The notes below the pieces were generated by a model. The model saw only the letters and a list, made by a program, of their open reading frames with translations, did no database searches and had not been told where the DNA came from. Made by a program: the position numbers and the translations under genes. From the NCBI GenBank assembly GCA_001929475.1, contig LXFE01000603.1, positions 1-34,849 of the forward strand: DNA of 34,849 bases, given 5' to 3'. Below are positions 3,133-34,221 of the stretch, in pieces; position 1 is the stretch's first letter; each line of letters opens with the position of its first letter. The DNA is from Neolecta irregularis DAH-3. Lineage: Eukaryota.

Positions 3133-4272
3133 ATGCGCCAGCCTGGCCCTCGTCGTATAGCTATCGCGCTAGTCGTCTGTCTTGTAATGATCTACTTCTT
3201 TTATCCGAACTCCGATTTAGACTTTCCTTCAAACCCGACATCAGTTAGACCTGCAGTGAGAGAACCTCCCATACAGAAATCTCCACGAAAGCGTCCGAAA
3301 ACACAGCCAATCCTCAAACACTACCAGACTCTGCGTGAGAATTTAGAGTATCAATTCCCTTACGATATTTCGGGGATGTTTCCTACATATATATGGCAGA
3401 CATGGAAATTCAGTCCGAATCAAGATGAGTTCGACGAGAGATTGAGAGAACCGGAGGCGAGCTGGACAGGCATGCATCCTGGCTTTATCCATGAAGTATG
3501 TGTTTCTCCTATTTATGCCTTAATCCTCAGGTCATTGACGATAAAATGGCCGCTGCTCTAACACGACATCTCTTTTCTTCGACGCCTGAAGTTATAGAAG
3601 CATACAATGCTCTTCCTCTTCCCATTTTGAAGGCCGATTTCTTTCGGTATCTTATTCTTCTCGCTCGGGGAGGTATCTACAGTGACATCGATACCGCGGC
3701 CCTTAAACCTGCAAAAGAATGGATTCCGTCTACAGTTTCTCCAGACACTGTCGGAATGGTGATTGGTATCGAGTCTGATCCCGATTTGGATGATTGGGAA
3801 AAGTATTATGTTCGAAGAATTCAGTTTTGTCAGTGGACGATACGAGCCAAGCCAGGTCACCCGATTCTTCGAGAAGTCGTTGCAAGAATCTCAGAGGAAG
3901 TGTTATCAAGGAAAAGTCTCGGCACATTGCTGGATGTAAACGACGTTCTTGAATTGACTGGACCAGGTGTCTGGACTGATTCAGTTTATTGGTGGCTAAA
4001 TCAGATTTCAAATGGACAAAAGGTTTCATGGGAAAATTTCACTGCCATGAGGGATCGGAAGCATATTGGAGACATTCTAGTTCTTCCAATAACTGGTCTT
4101 TCTTTCTTGACCATATGAATACTAATTCGATTAGGATTTTCGCCTGGAGTACGTACAATGGGCGCAGAAGATGATGATCATCCTATGGCAATGGTCAAAC
4201 ATTATTTTGAAGGTGACTTCAACTATTCATGGTCTTTCTGATGCCTTTCTAGGATCTTGGAGAGAGGAATAA
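3133..4272 (+). CDS. OCH1: Initiation-specific alpha-1,6-mannosyltransferase (GT32), Golgi type II membrane protein
   Basis: N-terminal TM anchor; FPTYIWQTWK; ILKADFFRYLILLARGGIYSDID (DXD motif); RRIQFCQWTI; TGPGVWTD; LPITGFSPG; KHYFEGSWR. Introns 3496-3530, 4096-4134, 4213-4252; TAA 4270-4272. Confidence 0.93.
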
Positions 4273-4915
4273 TAATTAATGGATAATTTACAGCATTCTT
4301 TGGCCGGTGTACTGGAGATCTAGCATTCCCAATTTATATGAGGGTTTCCTGACATTATCACTTTCTCCCTGACCCTTCTTAAATATTTTTGCTTAACTGC
4401 TTATCTGCTGTAACGCATGAACTCGACTCGATTTAACGAATCTTCGCAATTACAACACTATTTAGAGATTCCTCTTGGACTGTTCCTAATTTATGAACTC
4501 CACATGTATGCAGGCATGAGATTGTAATTCAGCTCCGAATTTTGGGAAGTTTCTGGCTTAGATGGCTTCTTTGAAGGTACCATGACAATACCGAGAGAAT
4601 ATTTAGTCATAACTTTCAGGGGTTCAACCGAATGGGATACGAATGCCAAATTGCTTTACCAATATCTAGGAAATGTTATTTTAAACATCAATCAAAAGAT
4701 TTAATCGTCTCAGAAAGAAAGATTTGTACCCGATATTTTCTCAAAAGATTATCAACTATGTACACTGGTTATCTATAAGTACACAGAACAATAATAGAAC
4801 TTGGACAGAAAGAAATAAAGTATTCCATAATCCCAATCTGAAGCCCACCAGAGAAAAGAGATTCCCACAGAATACGCCGACCCCGAAAAAAAACAATGCT
4901 GATAACCGCCAAAGT

Positions 4916-7900
4916 TCACCTCAAACTCAACAAACTCAACAATACGATTGCTTGACGATCGCTGCGTTCGGGATGGACCATCGCTAAGACGACGCCTTCG
5001 CCAGTGGCGTCAGATGAGCTAAGTAAACGAATATCTCGACCAGGGATGATTTGGACAAGGACACCGTTGTCAGCATCGTGAACTTCGACAAAATCGGAGT
5101 TCACACCAACGACGTAACCGTAATAATGTGCAACATGACGAGGTCGACCATACCATTCAAGAGTTCGCTGCCTTGATACATCACCATGTTTGTCAACATA
5201 CAAACCACATTCTATAGGTCAGTACGCGCATCTCGACACAAAAGGAAACCATCATAACAAAGCAGAAACTCATTTTCATTTAGCCTGAACATACCTAATG
5301 GCCGAGTGCTATCAAGCCTACTCTTCAGAGCATTCAAATTGGATTCCCGAAGATTAGGAATCGTTTCTGGCTGTTTCGTATCAAGAGTCAAGACCTCGAA
5401 CCCTAGAATTAGGTTCATCTTGTTATAAACATAACGTACCTCTAGTGCATTTAATACACATACTAGCCTTGAAAAAGTGTACGCCATAACAATCCGTCGG
5501 AATGAAAAATTCATCAAATTCGCGAAAGAATTCGGTAGTAGCAGAGGCACTCCACGCACTTCTCCTCAATGAAAATTTATTTTTTTTGGATGAAGTTTTC
5601 CCGACAACAGGTTCGAGGGCCTTGAATACAGAGTTCATTCCCTGTTTCTTTTTGTAGATAACAAGTAATCGATCTTTCTGTCGTCCAACAGAGAAAAACC
5701 CAACGTCGGCTTTTCCTGAGAGTTTATGAGCGGGCTTCGTAGCAGGGCCAGGAGAGAGAATATCCATGGTATACGCAGTGAGTATCTGGTCGGCGAGAAC
5801 AACAATAACCCCGAATTCCTCAAGGACTTCGATTTGTTGGATTTTGTGGAGTGTCAAGATACTTCTCCACCCTCGGATATCTCCAACTTTTGCGACCCAT
5901 AAACCTTGTTCTGTGCCGATTAGAATCATTTTGCTTCCATCGTCATGAGTGAATTCGGTCGCACAAGTGACTCGTGCGAATGTTGGAGCACGTCCACCTT
6001 CAGGGTACTCTTCTTTTAATTCCCTAAATGCTGAATCAAGAGGAGATCCTGGAACGAGAAACCCGTCCTCCATTGCCCCATTAGAATTCATCTCAACACC
6101 GGTGGACCCATCCACATTTCCAAAACAAGCGTCTGAAAGAACGCGAATGTAGAATGGCTCAACGTTTAATTGAGCCAGCTGGTCCACACGACGGCTTTTA
6201 GCGAATAGAATCCGCTCAATCCATTGCTGACGAATATTTCGATCAGCGGCAAATAACGTCCATTCTCCTCCGGACTTTCCAAGATGTTTGATTGTAAAAG
6301 GGAATATCGCGGATTTATCATTTGGAGAAGGAGAAGAATCACCAAGGTGTAATGAATGTCCAGGTTGAATGGCGCCTGTTTTACGTCCAAAGCTGTGAGA
6401 TCTTTGAGATCGAGTGTTTGATAAATCAGCATAAGACCCGTTAGTGTTCACTGTGGAAGTTAATGTTCCAAGGACTTTTGTGGTGCTTGATTTGACGACG
6501 CATTCTTCAGAGCCAGGAGCAATTACGAGGAGGTCAAGTGGAATAGGCTTTCATCATCAGTGAGTCAGCAGAAAGAATGATACCTGTTTTGAAACATAGT
6601 AACGATTTCCACCCAAATCTTTATCTTTCTTGACTTTGGTCATCAGAAGAAAATTATCCAAAAGAACAAGATGAATGTCAAGCCATTCAAGACCAGTTTC
6701 GCTCTTCCTCTGAACGTCTCCTCTCATCAAAATCTCACGCCCTGGATCCTTCAACTCTAGATTCTATATAATTAGTCGTATTTACCAAAACGAAAGAACC
6801 GTTTCATTATTACTCCTGAAAACAATGCGATCGTCCAACTCACGTAACGATAATTTCTTTTCGGTGATCGCAACTTGAATATCGCTTTCTCGACAAACAG
6901 CCTTAATCTCCTCGTTCGCAAGCTCCAAAATCTCCTTGTCAGGATTGGCAAGGTTCGTTTTTTTTAAAACCGTCTCGAGAAGAAGTGTATAACGTTGAAG
7001 ACGTTGTGTAGGTCGCTGTAAAAAACTCCGAAATTCAAGTCTTCGTGAACGGACATCAGCCTGGCATTTCTATTTTTCAGAAAAATAAAAGGTAGGAAAG
7101 CATACATCCAACCATAACCGAAAACTGGGATTTTTTGCCTTCTCTTCACGTACCAGAGCGTCAGCGTTTGGAAAATTGGCATTGTAACTGATATAATTTT
7201 TCCTTGCTCTTCGAATCCATTCAAGAAACGAATCCCCAAGTTCAGTTATCAACCATTTCTGTTCACTTTGTCTCTGTCTCAGACTGTTCAGCAGAGCATG
7301 GTTGTATTTCAAAATGGGCTCTAACCGACCAAAAAGCATCTGTCGAAAATAATCCAAGCGTCCACGGTCGAAAATAACATGTTGCGTAAGCGATTCTCGA
7401 TATAAAGAAAGCAAGAGATCCAGATCGTAGACATACTCATCTTCGGTGAATATAATTTCGTGGATAACATTTTGTCGTGTGATTTCTTCCTTGGAAAGGT
7501 CTTCGAGTTGGTCATCTGTAAGTGACCAGTAGGACATCCAGTCCTTCGAGTTAGCAACAGTGGGTTGCATTGTTATTTTGTAGAGGGTCCGGGAGCATCG
7601 GGGGGCGTAGCATCGGGAGCCATTCAACCCGTCTAGACATCTAGGACTGTAGCACCCTCGACCAGAGAGAGTTGGAAGCACACCAGTGACCGGCCAGCCT
7701 GTATACTGGACATGATCTCCGTCTTGTTCAAACGCCCCTTGCGACATTAAATTTGAAAGAACATGCTTAGCTAGATTTTCCGCGATGACAGTTGACAGAG
7801 TTGGAACGTAATGCTGAAATAGCTGTGTAAGACCATGAATCGATTCTTTTCCCATCAAGGGGTTATTAAGCTCTGACACCCAGATCGCCAATGAACTCAA

Positions 7901-8758
7901 GGCCCAAGGTTCCTCGCATCTTTCGAAATCCTTCGCTGACAGCTTATTGTTGAACGTAGGTGGCAATGAAGGAAGTAGTGGGGTAAGTCCAGTAGGTGGG
8001 ATCGGTTCACTTGGAGTCCGCCGATGTTGAGCAATTATATTATGACTTTGTGATCGAACGACAGAACCAACAGCTACTACGCCAAGGTTATTTGACGGAA
8101 CAATGTGCGATTGCGAGCGATTAACTCGGTGTTTATAAATTGAAGGGTCATAACTGGTAGATTTTGGAAGTGGTCTAGAATAGGATGAGCTATATGGAAT
8201 TGGCGGAGGAGGTCGATTAGGTCCTAGTGGCTGTTTTATGTCTAGGCTCTGGACTTCATAGATATTTGGATGAACTTGAGTTTCAGGAATCAATTCTTGT
8301 CCACGATGAAATGAATATTGACTGCTGGTGCTAGATCTTGTGGGTGGTCGATTGTTCGGAACAGGAGGTAGAGGATGACGAAGCTGCGAATGCTGATACA
8401 AGTTCTGTTTAATAACTGGAGACAGGTAATCCTCGTAAACATCGCTAGGACTCACTTCAGCTGACTCAATAGAGTAATGACTCGAATGTCGATGGACAGG
8501 AGCCAAAGGAAGTGGTTTTCTCTGCGGATGAAGTTCTGAAGACGAAGGGTAAATCACGGTTCCCGGCCTGTCACTTCGGACTGCATAATCCTCGAACTCC
8601 TCATATGGCTGATATGACGAGGGAGAATCTGGCCTCTGCAGATGACCCAACGTCTCGCGATAATCCTGTAGCAGGTTACTCAAGCGGTGATCACGCTTCA
8701 GAGGGACAGGAGGTGGCAATTGGCGTGGTGGAGGAGGAATCCTCCAGTGGTCTCCCAT
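4916..8758 (-). CDS. rgf3: Rho1 guanine-nucleotide exchange factor, Rgf3/Tus1 type (Pro-rich N-terminus, DH-PH-CNH)
   Basis: EPWALSSLAIW; Cys motif CYSPRC...CYAPRC; DH start RQNVIHEIIFTEDEYVYDL; RPTQRLQRYTLLLE; PH HLVLLDNFLLMTK|PIPLDLL; CNH RPLGMFRLNENEFLLCYD. Introns 7070-7105, 6764-6799, 6548-6583, 5403-5439, 5212-5249. First in-frame ATG is 8758; the frame is open to about 8932, so an upstream exon is possible. Confidence 0.88.
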
Positions 8759-9156
8759 ATATTCCGCCGTGGTGGATGGTGATGTAGGGTCTGGCAATGA
8801 CGACGTCAATTGAAATGATGGTTTGGTGTAGACATACCTCCGCTGAGTCACGTTCGGCCTAGTCGTCGCTGTTCCCCACAAACAAAACTTTGTCCGCAGG
8901 GATGCCCAATCTTGGCGTACTGCTTTCGCCAATCTGCACCAATTATATGAACTGGTTTGTCTAGTATCTCCTCATGCTTTGTCGTACGAGAATTCTCCTG
9001 CGAGTCTTCGCAGGGATACTTCTATCTTGCTGATCAGTGAATAAACAATGATGCTTATTTGCTTTGCTTCATACCTTGCGCAAGTTATCCAGGGCTACTG
9101 GAATTATACTCCCCACCAGATGGGGCAGAATAAGATTATATATCAGCTAATTTATC

Positions 9157-12575: not shown

Positions 12576-13302
12576 TTAGAGAATATCGCACTTGTTCATG
12601 ATTTTCTTGCGATCTTTATGAGCAGTTCCAGCGCCAACTTCCTTCCTCATGATCTGTCTACAGAGGTCGGTGAAGACTTCGTCAATGTTGATTCGCTTTC
12701 GAGCAGATGTTTCGTAGAAGGGGGAATTTCCAAACTTTTCAGATAGTTCAATTCCTTGGGCTCTGGACACCACTCGGTCGTCTTCCAAGTCACATTTATT
12801 ACCCACGAGAACGAGCGGGATCTGTATAATGAGCGAGGTAAAGAGGACGACGCACGTCACGGATGTTATCAGTATCTTTTACGCGAAGGATTTGATCATG
12901 GAGATCTTGAAGATCTCTGACGGAGGCTTGCGAAGTAATACTGAAGACGAGCACGAACCCTTGACCGTTCTTCATGTAGAGATCTCTAATCCCAGTGAAT
13001 TGCTCGGTGCCGGCAGTGTCAAGGCTAGTCTGTCAGCGGGGTGATTGTGTGGTTTAAGGGGCTACATTTCGAGGGTGCATTGGCGGCCGTCTATCTCCAC
13101 CATCTTGCGATAGGAATCTTCAATTGTGGGATCTGGGGCATAAGAAGATGGCATGGACGGCAGGATGTACCATATCGCTCAACCCAGACAGAGCTGACGA
13201 ACTGCACGGTCATTGCGGATTTCCCAACACCGCCGCAGCCTTGAGAGTCAGAAGCGGCCAAGACAGGAGAGCACCAAGAACTACAATCTTGTACTCTCTC
13301 AT
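12576..13302 (-). CDS. RSR1: Ras-family small GTPase, Rap1/Rsr1(Bud1) type
   Basis: [43 protein letters not shown] (Thr61 is the Rap signature); [13 protein letters not shown]; CaaX CDIL. Introns 13240-13274, 13133-13170, 13025-13065, 12822-12855. Confidence 0.9.
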
Positions 13303-13438
13303 AGCGACTGGAGGGCTGTGTGGAAAAGATATTCGTCAAGGAGACAAGCAAGGGGAAGTATTGGTGGAAGAATCGGCGGGAGGAGGAGACGGGGGTGTTT
13401 TTCTTGTTATCCACTTATCGGCGGGCTCTCAGCCACCC

Positions 13439-13445
13439 TTTTATA
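13439..13445 (-). promoter_or_regulatory. Candidate TATA box of RSR1
   Basis: TATAAAA on the minus strand, about 137 nt upstream of the ATG at 13302, standing out in GC-rich surroundings. Confidence 0.4.
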
Positions 13446-13538
13446 AGGCGCGTGCCCAAACGGCCGCGGCTATAGCCTTTGAGCAAAGGTTTGTTCTACG
13501 CCGGCAATTCAGACTAGCGGATTCTGTTATTCGCTGGT

Positions 13539-13680
13539 TCCCGGATATCTGCGATATATTGCTCCTCCCGGATATCTGCGATATGTTGTTACCCGCGATA
13601 TCGCCATACTCCAGTTCCTCATCGCCGCTACGGCCTACTCCTGCTACTCGTCGTCGCTGCCCGCGACATCGCCATACTCC
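13539..13680. repeat. Degenerate direct repeats derived from the SND1 3' coding end
   Basis: CCCGCGAYATCGCCATACTCC at 13592-13612 and 13660-13680 (20/21); TCCCGGATATCTGCGATAT exact at 13539-13557 and 13566-13584 (27-nt period). Confidence 0.8.
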
Positions 13681-16458
13681 CAAACGCCCCGGCGCTCCCG
13701 CCGCGCCGCGTCCATCGCCAGCACCAGCTCCCGCCCGGCGCCCTTCTTCAGGCTGACTATGCCCTCGCGCACAAGCTCCGCCGCCACCGCCTGCAGGTCC
13801 AGCCGCAGCACGCCGCCCTCCCGCGACTCCACCACCGCCGCGACAGGATCCGCCAGCGCCCCCAGGAACTGCTTGTACTCTGCGAGATAGTCGTGGTGCA
13901 GTCGCAGGTGCGACGCAGCAGCAGCCTGCGCCTGTCCAGGCAGCGAGCCAAACCGGGGATCGCCAAGCTCGCGAATCTCGTTCTGCGGCAAGGTCTCTGT
14001 GTTTCCGTAATCAATGTATTTCTCCTGGTCAGCACCGGAAATGAACAACAGGGGGAGTTACAACGTCCACTTTGGCGCCAGCAACACGGACGACTTTGGC
14101 TCGATACCACAACCCGTCTTCGCTAAACCTGGCTGCAACCAGCTCGCCGTTGCGGAGTTTCTTGCTGCTCGGCGGCTTGGCTCCCGCATGGAAGCTTCGA
14201 AATTCTTTCATCAATCGATCCAGCTGTTGGACACCTTCATAATAAGACTCCATATATAATATAATACCATACCATCGCCGACGATCTGCACACTCAAGGC
14301 CCCCTCGTCATCCACATCCGTAACGATAACCTGGACCTCTTCCATCCTTGTCCCCACGGGAGTCTCTTCAACAGCATCGACATAGTCCACCCACAGACCC
14401 TTCTTGCCCTCTTTTGCTGCTGTCTGCAGATCGCTATATTTCTTTGGAATATTGTAACCGTTTGCATACCCCCAACCTTGCTCAAGCAAACTTTCGCCAA
14501 AGTCCAAGCCTTTGAGATACAGGGTTCCAATAAACCCCCCGTTCCGGTCGACCCCTTCAATACTAACTTCGACATCTCGTTGTAATACCCGATGAACAGA
14601 ATACCGCAAACTTTCAGGACCATGGGGATCTTCAGAGCGCGGAGACCGAATATTACTCAACACCAACAGAATCTTCACATTCTGATTCCCCAACAATATC
14701 TTGAATCTAGATGCGGAAGAGACAAATTCGACTGTACCGGTCATACGTTTCTGTCGCTGAAATGTGGATAGATAGGATTTGGCTCGGGTGGCGGTTTCAC
14801 TTGCATCAACAATTCGCTGAACTACAGGTGGTTTTATTGAAAATATCCCTTTCTGACTGGTTTGCGACTCGAGTTCGGCAGAGAGTAACTGATCGTAAAT
14901 CGGACTTCTGTCTTCATCGTCCTTCCGGTGACGTACGACAGTAGCGCGTCCTCCTTCGACCAATTTCAAAGCTATATTTCTATTATTTAGAAACCTCAAT
15001 GGAACAAGTACACTTACTGGCCATTCTGAATTATTGTCGCACAGTCACGTTCTTCAAAGCCCTCGTTAGCAGGCTTGGTATAGTCAATCGTAACGTGAAC
15101 TGTTTTCCCAATTATTTTCTTGCGAAGAAATTCTTTGGTTTCTGGGAGCCATGCCGCTTGAGTTGGATCCGCTGCTCTATATCTCTTAATATCTCTACCT
15201 ATATTGGGTCGAGATACTTTGGTTGTCGAATACTGCTAAGCTGAACTCGTTTTTCTTCCCCAGATTTCAGGAGGAGATCGAGAGTATCTCCATTCTGAAT
15301 TCGAAATACAGTAGCATCGAAGGATTTCAAATTCCGGGTCTTTGCAATATGTCCTTTCCATAAATTTAATTTAATTTCTTTTGCCGCTCTTCTAATTAGT
15401 ATTTCTCAATGCATAAATCTACCTTTCAGCATTTCGAAGGGCAGCCATATCATTTCCAACAAGGCTACTCATCCAATCGACACATCTAGCCAGACCTGAA
15501 TTCAGCAATGCCTCGGCGATATTTCCAGCAGGATGTTTAATTAATCCAATAAAGAGATTTCCGGATTGATTTGTACCAAGGAGTGTAATCTTCACAGTTC
15601 GCTGGAGAAGTCGTTGTTCCACAAACCACTTGGCCTTGTACGAATTAGCCTTTGAATCTATGGGATATTTACTTGATCTCCGAATTCTTCTCCAAGTTCA
15701 TTGTTATCGTCACGAGCGGGATTCGGAGCTCGAATTCCGGCGATGATGACTGGTAGCATCTGATGACTATTCCCTGAAAGCAGTAATCGAGCTCGTAATT
15801 GATCCCCGGATCTTACCTGTTCGATAATTGCTGCTCTAGTTATCCAAATGCTCTATTAAATCTGGAATGATGATACCATCAACCTCTCGACCCCTAAATT
15901 CCTCCAAAAACCCAGTCGGTTCAGAAATATCATATTTCACAATCAAACTATCTTTGTTTCTCCAAATTCCTCGTTCTTCCTTCCGAGCAACATCCTCGTA
16001 TCCTTTCAAGATTTCCAAAATCTCTTCATCTCGATTCATGGCATCGTCGCGAAGTCGGACGACTCCCTCTTTCACAGCCACCTGTAGAATATCCTGACCA
16101 TTCAAAAATACCGTGCCGTATTCGCGTTGGGAAGTCGGTACTGTGTAATGAATAACAAAATCGACCTCCTTCCCAACAAGAAGCTTTCGCAAGAATTCTC
16201 GGGAAAAGAAAGCCCACGGCTTTACCAATTAGTTTATCTTTGAAAATCTGATCGCAAAGACATACTTCATCGCCTTCTCGTCGGAGACGAGGAGCAGAGA
16301 CCCACGCGAGAGAAAGGGTTCGTTCGAGAGGCGGTTGGTTTCCTCTGGGTTTTCCGGCGAGAACAATTGTGTCTCCAGAGTTAACTGATCAATTACGCCA
16401 ATTGAAACAACTTGAAGCAAATACCCAATTTTACTTTTGCGTGCATAGTTCCTTGCAT
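13644..16458 (-). CDS. SND1: Tudor-staphylococcal nuclease (Tudor-SN/p100)
   Basis: AKVKLVNSGDTIVL; APRLRREGDEPWAFFSREFLRKLLVGK; GNIAEALLNSGLA; VVRHRKDDEDRSPIYD; Tudor ARFSEDGLWYRAKV...YIDYGN; C-terminal GVWEYGD. Introns 16385-16424, 16220-16265, 15831-15876, 15635-15672, 15389-15422, 14980-15017, 14235-14272, 14025(or 14022)-14061. Start is 16458 or 16446. Confidence 0.92.
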
Positions 16459-16728: not shown

Positions 16729-17825
16729 TCAAGCTTGTTCCAGCTTTTTCTTCAACAACTCTTTCAGAGAAACAGCATCTGCTGCAAATTTTCGAATACC
16801 TTGAAAGTGAGCTGTTCACATTCAAAGAGGAGACATACCATCACTCAATTTATCAACAGCCATTTCATCTTCATTGAAAGCCCATCGGAATTCCGACTCA
16901 TTGTTAATGTACGATACTTTTTCCATCTTTTGTGATTTCGCTATTCCATGTCAATCGACTATAAAAAAGGAAAGATGAACTACCACTTTCTGGCGAGAGC
17001 TTTGCCGTGATTTTAGTGTTGGAGTTTTTGAGTTCGGAGAGGAGAGAAGGTGAAATGGTAAGATAGTCACACCCAGCCAGTTCAATGATTTGATCGGTGT
17101 TACGGAAGCTCGCACCCATGACAATTGTCTTGAATCCGAATCGTTTGTAGAATTGATAAATTTGTGTAACTGTTTGAACACCAGGATCTTCGGAACCATT
17201 GTAGTTCTTCCCGGTCTTGGCTTTGTAGAAATCAAGAACGCGGCCAACGAAAGGGGAAATAAGAGTAACACCGGCTTCTGCACATGCCACTGCCTGAGCA
17301 AAGCTAAACAAGAGAGTCAGATTGCAGTGCACGCCATGGTCTTTTTCGAGAATGCGTGCGGCGTGGATACCTTCCCAAGTGGACGCGATTTTGATCAAGA
17401 CGCGGTCCTTGGAGATTCCCTGTTCCTTATACAGATCAATGATATGGAGCGCTTTCTCGATGGTTTTCTTGGTGTCGAAAGAAAATCGAGCATCAACTTC
17501 AGTGGAGACGCGGCCGGGGACGATCTTGAGGATTTCTCGGCCGAATTCAACCAGGAGACGATCGAGAGTTGCATCTGTCTTGGCGCAGAGAGGACCTGAA
17601 TAATGTTTGCCGTACTTTACAGCGGCATCGATGAGGTGAGAATAGGCAGATTTCTGGGCAGCGACGAGCAGGAGAGATGGATTTGTGGTTGCATCCTGAG
17701 GTTCATACTGCGCAATGCTTTCAAAGTCGCCACTGTCACTAACGACAACAGTTCCGATTGCCTACTCAGAGTTAGACAGGTCAAGGAAAGCCGGGTGCTT
17801 TGAGCTGGTCGAGTACAGACGTCAT
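16729..17825 (-). CDS. TAL1: Transaldolase
   Basis: [53 protein letters not shown] (Schiff-base Lys); [26 protein letters not shown]. Introns 17762-17798 (GC-AG), 16941-16983, 16800-16838. Confidence 0.95.
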
Positions 17826-23064: not shown

Positions 23065-24704
23065 ATGTCCTTGGCAGACGAACTTCTTGCTGATTTCGGA
23101 TCAGACCCCGAAGATCAGGACCACAATCAAGAAGAACCAAACTCAAAGGATGGGGTTCACCATCCCATCTCTGACAACGACAATGAGGAAAGCACCACCA
23201 CGGCGATCAAAAACATCCAAACGGATAATGCGGATCTCACGGAAGCAGAACAGATCGAGAAGATCGTGATGAAAGAAATACAAGATGTTGGGAGAGTCGC
23301 TAAAGTCATGCAGTCGAAATATGTCGATGAAGTGTTGAAAGTATTTGATCCCTTCTCTGAGAGAGTTGATGAATAGCAAATCGATTACTACAGTCAGCAC
23401 GAGAAATTGCAAATCGTTGGAAATATCGAAGATGATCCGGAATATCGACTTATTGTTCAGGCAAATAATGTTGTCGTGGATATCGATAACGAAATTTTGT
23501 TGGTTCATAAGGCATTATTTTTCTTTCCTGTAGAACTAAAGTGTAGTTCATCCGCGATCATTACGGAGAAAAGTTCACTGAACTCGAATCACTAGTCATA
23601 CATCCTCTTGATTATGCAAAGTCTGTAAAAGCTATCGGGAATGAAACCGATATTACGAAAGTCGATCTCAAATTTCTTCAAGCAGCAACAGTAATGGTCG
23701 TCACCGTTACATCTACAACTACAGCTGGATCCCCCCTCTCAGAGCACAGATTGAACATCGTCATGAAGGCCTGTGATATGGCTTTATCTCTAGACGCAGC
23801 AAAACGAAAGATTCTTGATTACGTACAATCACGAATGTCATTGATTGCTCCGAATCTTTCCGCAATTATCGGATCTTCGACAGCCGCGAAGTTGATCGGT
23901 ATTGCTGGAGGACTTACTGCTCTTAGTAAAGTACCTGCATGCAACGTTTCCGCCCTTGGTGCAAAGAGAGCAACCCAAATTGGATTTTCGACAGGGGTTA
24001 CTATACGACATCAAGGATTTCTATTCCATTCTGAGCTAATTCAGCGAACACCCCCAGACTTCAGAAAACAGGCACAACGTATTGTTAGCGGCAAAATCAT
24101 TCTTGCTGCTCGAATTGATCGCATTCACGAAAGCTTGGATGGTTCTCATCTTTCCCCAATCTAAACTAACTAAGTAGGCTCAGTAGGACTCAAACTGCTG
24201 GATGAAGTTACCACGAAACTCGAAAAACTTAGCGAACCTGCGCCCAAAAAGAATGTAAAGGCTCTCCCCGCTCCTGACGATCCCGCTCGGAGGCGGCGAG
24301 GCGGCAAACGCGTTCGAAAGCAAAAAGAAGCATTTGCAGTAACCGAACTTCGCCGCCAGCAAAATCGAATGGCATTCGGAAAGGAGGAAATGGAGGTTGG
24401 TGTTTACGATGAGACTGTTGGTTTGGGGATGATCGGCCAATCTGATCAGGGAAAATTGAGAGCTGCTGCAGCTGATTCGCGTACAAAAACTAAATTGCCC
24501 AAGCACCTCAGAAATCGAATGGATGCCCTTAGAAGTTCAGCCGGAAACACAGGAAATTTGGATGGGACGATGTCGAGTTTGGTTATGAGTAGTCAACAAG
24601 GGATTAGTCTTGTCAATCCACTGCTTGCGGAACAACAAAAGAATAAGCTAAAGGAGGCTAATGAAGGTTATTTCTCGGGAATTTGGACAAGTGTGAAAAA
24701 ATGA
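23065..24704 (+). CDS. PRP31: U4/U6.U5 tri-snRNP splicing factor Prp31 (Nop domain)
   Basis: MSLADELLADF; GNIEDDPEYRLIVQAN; VHK|FIRDHY; VQSRMSLIAPNLSAIIGS; SKVPACN; RRRRGGKRVRKQKEAFAVTELRRQQNRMAFGKEE. Introns 23341-23376, 23512-23546 (GC-AG), 24142-24177. Confidence 0.95.
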
Positions 24705-27254: not shown

Positions 27255-28062
27255 CTATTTCTCCAGAGAAGCGGCAAGATACGCAGCCCATCCAGCGTCT
27301 CGGTATCTCTTAGCCTCAACCACAACATCCTCCGCACCGTATATTCCTCTTCCGACTATGATCACGTCGGACCCCGAGTCGATGGCCTGCTGGGGGGTAC
27401 GATATTGCTGGCCAAATGAATCTCTGGAAGTGTCCAAGGACACACCGGGAGTGAAGACTAAAAAGTCATCGTCGGAGACCTTTCGTCCAGCAACAAATCC
27501 GATGACGAAATCTTTGTTCCTTTGAGCCATTGAGATACAGGATTCGGTGTAAGAACCGGTAGCCATCGATCCCTCTGACGACATTTCCGCCAAAAGAAGC
27601 AGGCCGCGTCCTTTCTCAAGACCGCCTTCCTTCAGCCCCGCGACGATCCCATCTCCGGGAAGAGGATGAGCATTGGTTATGTCGGCCCAGGACGAGATCT
27701 TGTAGATACCCGAAGTGTACTGCAGTTTGACGGTATTCCCGATATCCGCAAACTTGCGATCTTCGAAAATCAAAAAGTCGTGGCGGGCCTGGAGTTCCTG
27801 CAGCCGACGGATAAATTCCTGGTCAAAATCCTCGAGAATGTCGATATGCGTCTGCACGGGTCAACACCGAGACAGAGAAGCAGATGACTTTGAGCACACA
27901 GATGTAGGGTCCGACAGCATCAACAAGGGTGAGCAAAGCGGTCTTGCGCGTAAGGTCTGCGGCGACGCATAGATTCGAATTCTTGCGCTGGATGATGCCA
28001 AACAATCTCTGTACAACTGAATTGGTGTAGTGGGCTGCGCGCTCAGTGTAGGTATCAACCAT
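27255..28062 (-). CDS. URA3: Orotidine-5'-phosphate decarboxylase (ura4/pyrG orthologue)
   Basis: [36 protein letters not shown] active-site signature; [26 protein letters not shown]. Intron 27852-27888. Confidence 0.97.
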
Positions 28063-28461: not shown

Positions 28462-31400
28462 CTAAATGTGCCTCATTAGAGCATGGACTTGATTTTCTCC
28501 CTCCGAATTCTCGCATCCGTACAGAATCTCGCCCCCTTCGCCTAACTTACCTCGGCCATCGGATAGAAGAGTAATGTTATTACCAGGGATGACTTGACTT
28601 AAAGCTCCTGATTCCAGATGGTGAATCTCGATGAAGGAAGGTTCAAAAGCGAGTATGTAAGGGTAATTTAGCGCTGAAAATCAATTAGAGTAACTGAAGG
28701 AAGATACCAAATGATGAAGGCATTCCTTCCCAGTGAATAATCCAATCCGACCGTGCTCTCCAACCATTCTTGTTAACAAAAAAGGCGAATTCTAGCTTAT
28801 TAGCTCCTAAAAAGGGGTCTAGCGGACCATCGTAGCAAACGAGGAATTCTCCGTTCATTCTATATATTGCAATTGGCCTAACGGTTTCTCGCCGTTGGAC
28901 GAAATCCAAGCTCGTGTCCGCAGGATCCAAAAGACTTTGTGTCTCAAGATTTTCAAGACTTACAACTTCAAATCCTTTCGCGCAACCAACGCACAACTTC
29001 GTCTTGAGAAAGTGTATCGAAGAGGACTCAGTGGGAATGTAAAATTCCTGTACAATCAGCTGAAGCAGGAAGTGGATTGCACACCTTGAATACTTTCAAC
29101 ATTTCGGTTCCACCTTGCAACAACTTTCGAAATGCAGGTTGTTTTTTTCCTTTTGAAACATGATCTACGGGCTCAAATACTTTGATCGTAGATGACAAAA
29201 CGCTGCTTTTCACGACGCACACAAGAAAGCGTCCGAGACAAACACCAACTTTAAAAAAGTTGAGATGTCCAGCGATTTTTCGTGGCCGCTTATTGGCGAG
29301 AGTTTGATCATTTGGATCAAGAGCCTCAAGTGGAAAAGAAAACAACGATTTATCAGAGAGAACGAGGATCAATCCATATTCTTCGAGAATATCCATTTGT
29401 GCAACATTCGACAGCGTTAATGTGCGCACAGGAGTCGATTTTGTTGTACTGTGTGGTTTTCGATCAGATACATATATTCCAGTATCGGTTCCATATGCAA
29501 GCTTTCTTCCGCCATCTAAAGATTAGCAATTTCAATTCGTTAAACTTGCCGAAAGGAACCAGACAGTTTACTCTGTTCCCGCCCATGAAATATTTCTCAC
29601 AAGTAACTACAGAAACAAACACACGACTTCCTTCTATCAGAAGCCTCTGTTGTGAGGATATATTCTCGATCCACTTTCTCCGATTTACATAAGTTCCCGC
29701 ATATAGCGTTATCGTATAACCTCGTCTGCCGAGATGTGTAAAAACAAGTGAATAACCACCGCTTTTTCCAGTATCAGCTTTCGTGGTTTCCAATTTTCCG
29801 TTTTTTGAGGTTCCAGGTAATAAACTGGAACTAGGTCTTTTGGTTAAAGATCCACGCGGCTCTTCGGCAGTTGAAACAACGAGCAGTTCCAGTGGAATAG
29901 GCTTCTAGTTAGCATATAATAGAAACGAAAACGCACCCTTCTAGTGACTTTGTACTGTTCTCGTTTACTTACAACCTTCACTTTAACGATCAAGAGGGCA
30001 TGGTCAAATAAGAAAACTTGAACAGTATCACCTCTGGTATCACTTGAACTTTCACGTTTTTTCAGCATGCCCTTATGTAGCATTTGCCGGTTTGGATCTG
30101 ATAACTTCAAATCGACATTTTCGCCTTGTTTGAAAGAAAGCCGTTCTTCGAGTTGCATGAGATTGAATAAATTTTCCGATTTTCCAGATTCCTCGTTTAC
30201 TCGAGCGAGAAATTGACGGATAAGTTCAATGGCTTTTGGAATATCTTCGTGATCGGAATTATCTTCATCAGTATATTTAAGAACTGCTTCAAGTAACAGT
30301 GGATAACGGGCAAGACGAGTTGTGGGCTTTGTGAGATAGCCGTTTAATTCTAGTTTTCGTGACTCCTTTAATCGTTCTGTTTCTTCCGCAAACTTGGCGA
30401 AAAAGGGATTACTGGATTTTTCCTTTTCAAATTCGTATTTGCCCCAAAGTTGGTTCGCACCATACTTGATAAAAGGCTCAAAGCGAGGGACGTATTCGAG
30501 GAAAATGTCACCAATTGTAGAGACTACTGGTTCCCGTTGTTGGCGTCGAGTCAATGCTTCTGCGAGACGACAATTGACCACATGGACTTCTAAAATATTT
30601 GAAAAAACAGTTTTTATGAATTTGTCTCGGTAAGAATCAGAGATGGTAGATTGGATTCGAAGAGGTTTTATCCAAAACTATTTCCACGTCAGTAAAACAT
30701 AAAGGCACGGTCCACGGGGAAATGTTAAGCCTAGGACTCTGAATAGAGGAAAAACTTACATCTCGTAAATATTCAAGATCTTTTACAAAATCACGCTCTG
30801 TATAGCTGACTTCGCAAATAACTTCTTGTCGTTTCTTCTCCTTGTCGGATGTCAGTTCAGCAATTTCCTTTGGAACTGAATGGATCCAGAGTTTTTGCTC
30901 GCCTTCATCTTCTTTTAAGGAGGCTCTGGAATCCGCACGTTTAAGTCCCGTCGGTTTCAAATTCAATCGCGCTTGTTGTTCTAATCTCCTTGGACACGCG
31001 ATGCTATAACATAAACGATCTCTGGTACATGTTGGGCTATAGCATTCTGTAAGAAGAGTGAAAACCCCGTTTGGAAAATCGTCCATATCCCCAGAAACAC
31101 GAGGAGATGGGGATGAAATTAAATCTGCTAGGTCGCTCGGATTCTCGAAGCTTGGCGAATTAAGCCGCTCTCTGAATTGATATATCTCATTTGCTCGATC
31201 ACGAAGACGGTGCTCGTAGGTTACATCATGAAAAAACTTTTGAGCATCGAGAGATCGACCGAGTAGTAATGCGAGATTGCGGTCCGTAGTTTTGATTAGG
31301 TGCATTATCATATCGACCGCCTCAGATCCCGAAAATGCTGCCTTATATGTAAGCCCATCCTTCTGCTTGTCTGAAAGGAAAAGTCGATTCCGAAATGCTT

Positions 31401-32223
31401 CCGACACGAGAGATAATAGAGCGGGATAAGTAACAGCTGGTCTCTTTTGACGACTCTGAACGGTAGCAGTGTTTGTAGAAGCGATTGATGATATTGAATA
31501 GGTACGATCCACTTCTGAAATACCACTGAGATTCGACGTGGTAGTCGCTGTGGAGAACTGGCGCTTCGGCGGGGCTCGAGACATGCTGTCGCTTCGCGAA
31601 TCGGATGCGGAAGAGAAGCTATGCGACCGTTCTTGCGGCGTTTGGGATAAGGAACTTGTCGCGGAAATATTTCTATTGGGCGGGGGAGCTGACTGAAGAC
31701 TCCGTGTGCGATATGAATCGGAGTTAAGTGCTGGTGCAGTAGGCGGGTCACCCGAAGATATAGATCGAGAAGAGTATGCCGGGGGAGGATATGATCGTTG
31801 TGGAAATTGATTTTGATTGCTATCATATTGAGGAGCCGTATATGAACTGGGTGCAGACGGATGGTCGTGCACTCGAATTGGTGGTGGATTGCGATAGCCA
31901 TCAGATCCATTGAAAGGGAGTTGTGGCGGTCTTTGCTGAGGCAGGGGACGTTGCTGGTAATGATGCGCCAGATACTGGGAATCCGGATAATAATGTTGGT
32001 TAGTCAACGGAGGAGGTCTAAGTTGTTGAGGAGGATGATTCAGAGAATTGACGTAAGAGAAGTTGTTATAGCCAGGCGGGAGACTTGGTCTTTGCGGCCG
32101 TTGCCCTGGTAGATGACCGGATCGCGATTGGACACCAGGAGTTCGACCAGGCGGGGGAGCATTTCCAAAGATATTATTGAAGGCTGCAGAGCGCTGATCA
32201 GACGTCGTTGCATTCGCTCGCAT
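28462..32223 (-). CDS. rgf1: Rho1 GEF, Rgf1/Rom2 type (DEP-DH-PH-CNH)
   Basis: YPALLSLVSEAF; DEP DRNLALLLGRSLDAQKFFHDVTYEHRLRD; CYSPTC...CYSIACPRRLEQQ; RQEVICEVSYTERDFVKDLEYLRD|FW; RKLELNGYLTKPTTRLARYPLLL; CNH TQSLLDPADTSLDFV; ends GEILYGCENSEGENQVHALMRHI*. Introns 30678-30759, 29902-29936, 29516-29549 (GC-AG), 29048-29084, 28792-28827, 28674-28707. Confidence 0.95.
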
Positions 32224-32842
32224 TCCGGCCTAACAATGTGTAGACAAACGTGGTATATGCGATGGGAATCTACAGGAAAGGGCAGGTACTCGGGTAAATT
32301 ATGAAGAGGGGGTCGTTCGAAGATGAGTTTTTTGGTGGTGAGTTTTCGCTGCGAGATGTTTGCGCATGTGACGGGTGTTTATGATCCATTGCCAAGACAC
32401 TTGTAATTGAGGCAACCGGCAACCGACTTCCACTTACTCGTCGTTTCATTCGGTCCTGCAGAATATATTATTGTGGGAGCGAGAGGCCCTGGCGACCAGG
32501 GCCGCAGTGTAAAATCTCTCTTTAGTTTTACTCAAGAAAGAATTCATTCAGACGTCTATCTGCGATATACTGCAAAAAGAAATGATGAATTTTGGTCGTG
32601 AGGTTGCGTTTGCAACAAAGATTCCCAGTTGCATTATCTCAATGCCTACGACTGACGAAATCATTGGAGTAACTGTATTGGCCAACATTGTCTGACATAA
32701 AACTGTTGTGAGTCCAATGCATAAATCAATTGTCAATATTCATATTCAAGCCTACATCATAGACCATTCTCATGGTGCAAGTTGATGTGTACATCTATGA
32801 GTGAGTATCATCAATTGTAGAAGAAACATTGTTGAATGTAAG

Positions 32843-32894
32843 TATGTTGCATATACAAAATTCACAGCAATAAGCAGTGTGTCCAACAGCCCGC
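32843..32894 (+). repeat. Two short blocks repeated about 1.2-1.5 kb downstream
   Basis: TATGTTGCATATACAAAATTCA (32843-32864) vs TATGCTGCACATACAAAATTCA (34310-34331), 20/22; CAGTGTGTCCAACAGCCCGC (32875-32894) vs CAGTGTGTCCACCAGCCTGC (34087-34106), 18/20. Confidence 0.7.
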
Positions 32895-33092
32895 TGCCAG
32901 TTTTATGAATGTAGTTCAAGAGGCATAAATACAAGATCTTGGATCAAAATGACCATGCACAACGTTTAGGGTTAGGTTCGGGAAACCACCTTTCCAACGT
33001 AAATAATATTGGAATTGGAAATATATGACGTTTCAGCATGATTAGATTTGCGGTCAAGACAAATTAGAACATTACCTATTAATATAAAAGAA

Positions 33093-33595
33093 TTACTTGT
33101 TAGTAATCCCGGTAGTGAACAAGTCACGAATCCCCGTAAAAAAGCTATCAAACATTTGAGTTATGTGGTTTGGCGCTCTTTTTTCCAACTTGTCATGACC
33201 ATTCATCCAAATCTTCTCATGGACTTTGGCAATAAAATTTTTGGTAGCGGCACCGAATTCCTCAATAGCTGTTGGTCCAAAGTCCTTGTCAAGGTGATCG
33301 ACCTTATTTTTGACTTAAAATGTAAGGAGATCTGTGTGCATATAAAGTTATACGTTCGTAGACGTTAACATCAATATTGTTCTCATCGAATAATTTCTGG
33401 GCGTGGTCCAACTCTTTATCGGCTTCAACTTCGAAATCTATACAAGTCAAATGGATAAATCAGGGAATGTGATCGCATGCCTTTAACTTCGTTCAACTCT
33501 TCCTCATCAATTCCAGAATGGCCATATGGGTCAGCGGGAGCGGCTGTTATCAGAGTTGCGACTGAAGCAAAGAGAACGAGATGTTTGAGTTGCAT
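33093..33595 (-). CDS. Orphan secreted prepro-peptide: signal peptide, acidic pro-region, KR site, 27-aa C-terminal peptide (139 aa)
   Basis: Exons 33595-33481, 33437-33354, 33313-33093; introns 33438-33480 (GC-AG, 43 nt) and 33314-33353 (GT-AAG, 40 nt). Translation: MQLKHLVLFASVATLITA-APADPYGHSGIDEEELNEVKDFEVEADKELDHAQKLFDENNIDVNVYELKNKVDHLDKDFGPTAIEEFGAATKNFIAKVHEKIWMNGHDKLEKR-APNHITQMFDSFFTGIRDLFTTGITNK*. Confidence 0.72.
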
Positions 33596-33945
33596 CGTGA
33601 TAACAATTGTATTTGTACTGATTGGTAGATCGGTTTCACCTACCCGATATGCCATATTTAGGGAAAATCCTGCGACTGGCTTGGCATTTGCCGTATGCGG
33701 CCTTACACCACATGCAGGTTCTTGGCCTGTTAAAAAAAGACCGCAATAAGAAATAATCTCGAATCGTGGTGTGAAGGGGTATAAAGAGGTCTCTTCAACC
33801 AACACCGAATTGTCGCTTTCGGCAAATTTCCTAAAACAGAATGCAGTGCGTCCAACTTGAAGCATGTGGTATTGTTGATAAGATATCGTGTGCAACACCA
33901 ATTTCAACAGAAAGAAGTCCTTGTAAGGATATATCCAAACTTTCT

Positions 33946-34221
33946 AACAAGTAAGCAAGTCCAATTCTGGACTTTGGACTTGCTTGCTTGCATATTTCAG
34001 GCCTTTGCACTTGCTTGCTTGGACTTACTTGCAATTTTACTTGCAAACTTGGACTTGCTTGTCTGGACTTGCTTGATAAATTTTTACAGTGTGTCCACCA
34101 GCCTGCCCGACCCGGCCGGAGGATCTCCGGCCGGCGGGCAGGTCAATCAATCTCCGGCAGGCGGGCGAGCGGGTCAAAACGTTTCCTGCAGGCAGGCAGG
34201 TCAACCCGTTTTTTTGGACAA
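33946..34221. mobile_element. Probable non-autonomous DNA-transposon (hAT/MITE-like) end remnants
   Basis: Array of (GG)ACTTGCTTG motifs with an inverted CAAGTAAGCAAGTCCA copy at its left end (33946-34075). A CAGTG-starting GC-rich block follows (34087-34221) with the palindrome CCGGCCGGAG-gat-CTCCGGCCGG and repeated GGCRGGCAGGTCAA. No transposase ORF is visible. Confidence 0.45.

Follow-up and report, generated by a model that had tools for sequence, protein, structure and literature searches.

The whole contig LXFE01000603.1 of Neolecta irregularis DAH-3, an early-diverging ascomycete, was taken as the window (34849 nucleotides, nt). On its minus strand, at 33595..33093, lies a small gene that raises a simple question: is its product a precursor from which a short peptide is cut, or a protein that works as a whole? 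The preliminary description of this locus, made from the letters alone, had proposed a hidden prepro-peptide gene that releases an amphipathic 27-mer after a site for the kexin protease Kex2. According to our analysis, the gene, with a predicted precursor of 139 amino acids (aa), probably encodes a secreted, acidic, helical protein whose signal is missing from the public gene model. The reading that we rank first, tentatively, is that of an orphan small secreted helical protein with the whole protein as the working unit; cleavage to a 27-residue membrane-active peptide is possible but unsupported.

The reading frame and its public counterpart

The minus-strand exons 33595..33481, 33437..33354 and 33313..33093, joined with a coordinate script, give 420 nt, i.e., 139 codons and a TAA stop, which reproduces the exon coordinates and the arithmetic proposed for the two-intron gene. 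Note that such a joined open frame carries no significance on its own, as 687 two-intron combinations are open between the same ATG and the same stop. The locus had been regarded as invisible and undescribed, which does not hold: the search with the exon-3 frame led to the hypothetical protein NEOLI_001571 (183 aa), already deposited in GenBank. It has the same exon 2 frame, exon 3, intron 2 and intron-1 acceptor as the 139-aa model, and a different beginning. The public model starts with the ATG at 33865, and a GTACAA donor at 33618 opens its first intron of 181 nt; as this intron spans the signal-coding stretch, NEOLI_001571 has no signal-like sequence. The corrected 5' end that adds a signal peptide is probably the new part. 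The locus tag NEOLI_001571 gave no match in the papers searched and is not named in three supplements of the genome paper (PMC5309816).

The 5' end of the 139-aa model is fairly likely to be the right one, with other starts, or no gene at all, sharing what the two models leave. We consider the signal exon the better 5' model because of the size of its intron and the geometry of the branch site. Ten introns of the contig were placed using Pfam profile coordinates, comparison of paralogues and alignment to PDB homologues (Table 1); for Prp31 and orotidine monophosphate (OMP) decarboxylase, the comparison was made with their conserved motifs. All ten are GT-AG introns with donors that are weak beyond the GT. 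They measure 35-82 nt (only 35-37 nt in eight cases), and in nine of them the A of a YTRAY-like or YTTAY-like branch motif lies 8-12 nt before the 3' end. The two introns of the 139-aa model had been described as typical in size, one of them being GC-AG; this is borne out, as both (43 nt, GC-AG, and 40 nt, GT-AG) lie within the local range. Intron 1 has a branch-like TTGAC motif and intron 2 a branch-like CTTAC motif, each with the A 10 nt from the 3' end, and both match the geometry of the resolved introns, whereas the public 181-nt intron with its GTACAA donor is outside this picture.

Only two in-frame donors could join the signal exon to the shared acceptor, and both are GC: that of the proposed 43-nt intron and GCCATT at 33522 (85 nt). 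The proposed intron 1 resembles U2-type GC-AG introns in its GC donor with consensus-like flanks (aag|GCATGC), its branch-like TTGAC and its TAG acceptor, and its length and branch-to-acceptor spacing are typical of the introns of this contig; it differs in being a predicted intron in a window where none of the ten resolved introns is GC-AG.

Codon usage was scored as log-odds trained on 3547 codons of the contig. Exons 1, 2 and 3 reach 0.18, 0.18 and 0.09 per codon, respectively, compared with a coding mean of 0.11, and their other two frames score below zero. The first exon of NEOLI_001571 scores 0.065, which is ambiguous.

Properties of the predicted protein

The 18-residue start on the predicted first exon passes a crude signal test that asks for a positive n-region, an uncharged 11-residue hydrophobic core and small residues at -3 and -1; in the window, 9 of 307 ATG-started frames of at least 30 codons (2.9%), including this one, do so. 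The following 94 residues (19-112) contain 24 Asp/Glu and 12 Lys/Arg, and the strong acidity ascribed to them is thus real, with a net charge of -12. The only dibasic pair in the 139 aa is the KR at residues 111-112, at ~80% of the length; it belongs to the single LEKR site, found at 33188..33177 as proposed. At least one KR occurs in 18.9% of 20000 shuffles of residues 19-139. The product possesses neither cysteine nor an N-glycosylation sequon, the estimated pI of its mature part is 4.5, and no tandem repeat was found in the coding region.

The C-terminal 27-mer has a net charge of 0 and an estimated pI of 7.5, which agrees with its earlier characterization as near neutral and not of the classic cationic antimicrobial type. 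Its hydrophobic residues are at positions 5, 8, 9, 12, 13, 16, 19, 20 and 24, as listed before, and the amphipathicity deduced from this periodicity is real but modest (p about 0.01): the helical hydrophobic moment is 0.388, compared with 0.173 ± 0.085 after shuffling, a value reached by 1.1% of 5000 shuffles. The best 18-residue window in the tail has a moment of 0.64 at a mean hydrophobicity of ~0, the highest moment in the protein. However, sliding moments of 0.40-0.47 occur in the earlier helices too.

Relatives and predicted structure

The searches for relatives returned the protein itself and nothing else. A word-indexed search of 5.8 billion clusters with the exon-3 frame found only NEOLI_001571, the same type of search with the exon-1 frame yielded no candidate, and an exhaustive phmmer search of the public protein against 1.84 billion representative proteins found only the query. 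In a metagenome scan, none of 126 pattern matches was confirmed. Within the contig, tblastn of exon 3 matches only exon 3. There was no Pfam match even at E ≤ 10, the best match in the PDB sequence search had E = 0.37, and the ESM Atlas feature search gave nothing. A family with a conserved pro-region and a variable mature peptide, for which the preliminary description had suggested looking, did not emerge from the sequence searches. The best explanation is that NEOLI_001571 is an orphan restricted to the Neolecta lineage.

Two AlphaFold models were calculated from single sequences and are of low confidence (predicted local distance difference test, pLDDT, 39.5 and, for exon 3, 65.9; predicted template modeling score, pTM, 0.32 and 0.38). 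In the numbering of the 139-aa gene model, helices are predicted at about residues 46-57, 64-76, 80-105/110 and 115-137. In the exon-3 model, they are at 5-10, 13-43 and 49-70, with a loop at 44-48. In these models, the KR is at the junction between the long helix and the loop preceding the last helix. The structural neighbors of the ESM Atlas's own model are generic helical bundles that align through to the C-terminus.

A candidate small secreted helical protein

The frame, its sequence features, the lack of relatives and the agreement of both introns with the local geometry are observations; splicing at the GC donor and the secretion, fold and function of the product are inferred. The gene would be a real gene of the Neolecta lineage, and its 139-aa precursor would be shortened to ~120 aa by signal cleavage. 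Four amphipathic helices, as predicted by the low-confidence models, would make up the secreted protein, which would act as a whole outside the cell via its amphipathic faces, binding a surface or lipid, with the last helix contributing the face of greatest hydrophobicity. Kexin may nick the protein in the Golgi at the LEKR of the preceding loop, but such a cut would not be needed. Small secreted helical-bundle proteins of the HsbA/Mp1p type, which are fungal surface- or lipid-binding proteins, resemble the predicted product in size class, in the signal peptide and in being all-helical and amphipathic. In the absence of a Pfam or PDB sequence match, the likeness is one of type only.

Several observations weigh against this interpretation. 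The signal exon needs a GC donor, yet none of the ten resolved introns of the contig has one, and the donor-like word AGGCATGY is not enriched (2 in the window versus 1.9 expected), the second copy, AGGCATGC at 3468, being exonic. Upstream of the ATG at 33595, no stop interrupts the frame for 116 codons. With stops making up 3.3% of the local codons (23 in 696, six frames), any one frame has a chance of ~2% of being so long, and this openness genuinely favors an N-terminal extension of the 139-aa frame. The codon statistic separates poorly, as small stray open reading frames score between -0.13 and 0.15. With no relative in any of the searches, there is no evidence of selection, and the low confidence of the models makes the helical bundle tentative.

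Possible release of the C-terminal peptide

Second in our ranking, and unlikely, is the prepro-peptide reading, according to which kexin cuts after LEKR in the Golgi and frees the C-terminal 27-mer as the active product. The peptide would be membrane-active, a surfactant or a signal, and the acidic 94-aa part would be a carrier or a neutralizing pro-piece. The peptide begins with Ala-Pro, a start of the dipeptidyl-aminopeptidase type; trimming by an X-Pro dipeptidyl aminopeptidase could leave a 25-mer, and the final Lys could be lost to Kex1. Our estimate combines a fairly probable secretion, a cleavage only slightly above an even chance and a somewhat better than even chance that the peptide is the functional unit.

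Kex2 prefers Arg at P1, Lys at P2 and Leu at P4 (PMC8528282), and small P1' residues are enriched at its sites (PMC2515848); LEKR followed by Ala fits all of these preferences. The KR at the predicted helix-loop boundary is probably exposed, the tail has the highest hydrophobic moment of the protein and exceeds nearly all shuffles, and an acidic pro-region beside a neutral hydrophobic peptide resembles the logic of a precursor. However, about one in five shuffled sequences contains a KR, and in vitro one third of the predicted Kex2 substrates resisted cleavage, in some cases because of their structure (PMC2515848). The pro-piece is 3.5 times as long as the peptide, and three amphipathic helices are predicted for it in place of a disordered spacer, while pro-domains are described as N-terminal and without secondary structure (PMC8528282). 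With a helical amphipathic pro-piece, the tail could just as well be the last of four helices in a single small helical protein. Furthermore, there are no repeats and no family, secretion rests on a predicted GC-AG intron, and the 3' end has a low-probability alternative (see below). Of the precursor architecture proposed initially, the anatomy thus stands (signal-like start, acidic middle, LEKR, amphipathic tail), but the 27-mer as the functional product is unsupported.

Comparison with known precursors leads to a similar picture. Like Kex2-processed repeat proteins (KEPs; the alpha-factor precursors, Ustilago maydis Rep1 repellents, Candida Ece1/candidalysin), the 139-aa product combines a signal-like start with a Lys-Arg cleavage logic and a putative short peptide, and the Rep1 and Ece1 peptides are amphipathic (PMC6339444). 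The KEP survey described in the same source required at least three repeated cores flanked by KR; the 139-aa product has one KR and no repeat, shares no sequence similarity with KEPs, and its tail peptide is net neutral. In secreted proteins with a Kex2-processed pro-domain (K2PP; SnTox3, ToxA), a signal is followed by a pro-part ending in a Leu-x-Lys-Arg-type site (PMC8528282), and LEKR at residues 109-112 is indeed a Kex2 motif (KR, RR or LxxR) located after the signal-like start. According to PMC8528282, however, the K2PP pro-domain is N-terminal and confined to the first half, has many disorder-promoting residues and usually no secondary structure, and is followed by a folded domain of larger size. 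In the 139-aa product, KR is at residue 111, the part upstream is predicted to be helical, and only 27 residues follow.

Plectasin-like defensin precursors have the order of signal, acidic pro-piece, KR and short mature peptide that is predicted for the 139-aa product, but the 27-mer is without cysteine and is predicted as a single helix, which rules out a defensin fold. Compared with membrane-active amphipathic helical peptides, the hydrophobic periodicity is present and the net positive charge is absent (net 0).

A narrower version of peptide release, which we regard as improbable, is a single-core, non-repeat kexin precursor: the acidic helical carrier would keep the amphipathic helix soluble until cleavage at LEKR in the fruiting body, and the released net-neutral helix, rich in Phe, Thr and Gly, would act as a surface- or membrane-active agent. 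In its polar face, which consists of small uncharged residues, this helix recalls lipid-packing-sensor helices. If this version were true, it would be a kind of secreted fungal peptide without known relatives, missed by secretome surveys since the public model has no signal.

The public model

Like peptide release, the public model is rather doubtful to us. It describes a 183-aa intracellular protein starting at 33865; the signal-like open reading frame would be a chance feature within an intron, and the KR would never meet kexin. It is the deposited model, and it needs only GT-AG introns, in agreement with all ten resolved introns. Moreover, the 116-codon upstream opening counts in its favor, and the codon score of its first exon lies within the lower coding range. 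On the other hand, its 181-nt intron with a weak GTACAA donor contrasts with the 35-82 nt of the resolved introns, and a signal-like ATG frame of the kind found in 2.9% of cases would have to join in frame by chance, through a 43-nt intron of typical geometry. Its N-terminal 83 residues have a pLDDT of 25-36 in the AlphaFold model and no family or relative, and its first exon lies within ~75 nt of a plus-strand TATAAAG at 33781.

Predictors of the AUGUSTUS, SNAP and GeneMark type generally default to GT-AG introns. They would have avoided the 43-nt GC-AG intron, substituting an upstream ATG and a 181-nt GT-AG intron for it. The genome paper's supplement (PMC5309816) states that the N. irregularis annotation merged AUGUSTUS, SNAP and GeneMark-ES predictions in MAKER, in a run for which transcript evidence was available; 6.6 Gb of RNA from fruiting bodies had been sequenced. 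The genome paper itself gives RNA-seq support for 99.4% of the gene models, as a general figure and not for this locus (PMC5309816). The searches of the protein collection with the exon-3 and exon-1 frames returned no transcript-derived protein fragment bearing on the GC donor.

The 3' end and the no-gene reading

A further exon extending the C-terminus would, if real, contradict the peptide proposal in its preliminary form. A perfect TACTAAC is present just before the stop codon, and a 62-codon open frame continues past it. A candidate third intron of 52 nt (GTGACT...TACTAAC...ATAG) would remove the stop and lengthen the protein by 34 codons, taken from the open frame 32972..33160, with an uninformative codon score of 0.094. 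We give it little probability. Its CTAAC is 25 nt from the 3' end, compared with 8-12 nt in the resolved introns, and the nearer AG, 5 nt past the branch A, is of the kind skipped in two resolved introns. Splicing to this nearer AG, i.e., a 32-nt version (33127..33096), was rejected: the PH_5 intron skips an AG at the same branch distance, and the Prp31 intron skips one that is 1 nt farther away.

That there is no functional gene, but an open frame of recent origin or in decay, or else an artifact of prediction, with its features due to chance, is hardly probable: it would agree with the lack of relatives in protein, cluster and metagenome searches, the weak codon test, the 687 alternative open splicings and the 1-19% chance level of each single feature, but in the chosen frame the three exons score at or above the coding mean (0.18, 0.18 and 0.09, the latter counted as at the mean of 0.11), both introns match the local geometry, the features appear together and are arranged as they would be in a secreted protein, and RNA support is claimed for 99.4% of the gene models in general (PMC5309816).

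Features of the contig

Table 1. Coordinates of the gene, its alternative parts and the resolved introns in the 34849-nt contig.
Feature	Coordinates	Strand	Remarks
Exon 1, proposed	33481..33595	-	ATG at 33595; 38 codons and first base of a split codon; encodes the signal-like N-terminus
Signal-like sequence, 18 codons	33542..33595	-	one Lys, uncharged hydrophobic core, small residues ahead of the proposed cut
Intron 1, proposed	33438..33480	-	43 nt, GC-AG, donor aag|GCATGC, acceptor TAG
Exon 2	33354..33437	-	84 nt, acidic helical segment; common to the public model
Intron 2	33314..33353	-	40 nt, GT-AG, donor GTATAA, acceptor AAG; common to the public model
Exon 3	33093..33313	-	stop TAA at 33095..33093; two predicted helices and LEKR site
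LEKR, sole dibasic site	33177..33188	-	residues 109-112; end of long helix, start of loop before last helix
C-terminal 27 codons	33096..33176	-	amphipathic, net-neutral, Phe/Thr/Ile-rich predicted helix
First exon of NEOLI_001571	33619..33865	-	probably not coding
Candidate third intron	33076..33127	-	52 nt, GTGACT...TACTAAC...ATAG; would bypass the stop
Resolved intron	7105..7070	-	36 nt, Rgf3-like gene
Resolved intron	6799..6764	-	36 nt, Rgf3-like gene
Resolved intron	6583..6548	-	36 nt, Rgf3-like gene
Resolved intron	24142..24177	+	36 nt, Prp31
Resolved intron	27888..27852	-	37 nt, OMP decarboxylase
Resolved intron	16986..16941	-	46 nt, transaldolase; kept residues align to solved transaldolases
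Resolved intron	30759..30678	-	82 nt, RhoGEF
Resolved intron	29936..29902	-	35 nt, PH_5; gap-free versus paralogue
Resolved intron	29084..29048	-	37 nt, CNH; score 226 versus 205 and 190 for alternatives
Resolved intron	3496..3530	+	35 nt, glycosyltransferase

In the eight introns of 35-37 nt, the branch-like motif is 8-10 nt from the 3' end, and the donor sequence seems to be under less constraint than the size of the intron and the spacing of its branch. Two introns (24166-24177, plus strand, and 29902-29912, minus strand) skip the first AG past the CTAAC branch in favor of an AG 3 nt further on; the distance from the branch A to the end of the AG is 5 or 6 nt for the skipped AG and 8 or 9 nt for the one that is used. 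Which AG is used was judged by gap-free fit to the Prp31 motif and to the paralogous PH_5 domain.

GC-AG alternatives were considered for several of these genes. Those in transaldolase (17005..16927), in Prp31 (24121 and 24133) and in the Rgf3-like gene (6828..6764) were ruled out on homology, and the one in CNH (29135..29060) scored 205 versus 226 for the GT intron. Three automatic heuristics for finding introns were uninformative, GT donors being no commoner than control dinucleotides.

The other frames of the contig with recognizable domains in a Pfam-type scan are ordinary fungal genes: two DEP/RhoGEF/PH/CNH genes, transaldolase, Prp31, OMP decarboxylase, a histidine phosphatase and an SNase-domain protein. 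The two RhoGEF genes (4900-9000 and 28600-32400, both on the minus strand) are similar in their RhoGEF-PH_5-CNH architecture; the former contains an RGF3 winged helix and the latter a DEP domain. Their PH_5 and CNH parts align well enough to aid the placement of introns.

The region 33950-34210, upstream of the gene, is of low complexity, with three imperfect copies of a 26-nt unit, three copies of a GC-rich 21-nt unit and a pair of short inverted repeats; on both strands, several long frames without stops cross it, with no evident coding role. Direct repeats flank the gene (25 nt with 88% identity at 32840 and 34307; 20 nt with 90% identity at 32875 and 34087). Their order differs between the two sides, and they are too short to interpret, and may be shared regulatory words or chance; no mobile-element structure was recognized from these short repeats around the locus. 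The most GC-rich part of the contig is 12000-14130 (0.506 versus ~0.43), and within it, at 13058-14126, long open frames overlap on both strands, the largest without a Pfam match.

Implications

The corrected product of NEOLI_001571 is at present a candidate, not yet a discovery. If the revised 5' end is right, the tiny introns of Neolecta, some of them with a GC donor, mislead standard gene prediction; the signal peptide is lost in this way, and the protein would be absent from secretomes derived from public proteomes. The gene is of interest as an orphan in a fungus that is relevant to the origin of complex multicellularity, and a secreted amphipathic protein or peptide, if made in the fruiting bodies, could bear on the surface properties of the hyphae.

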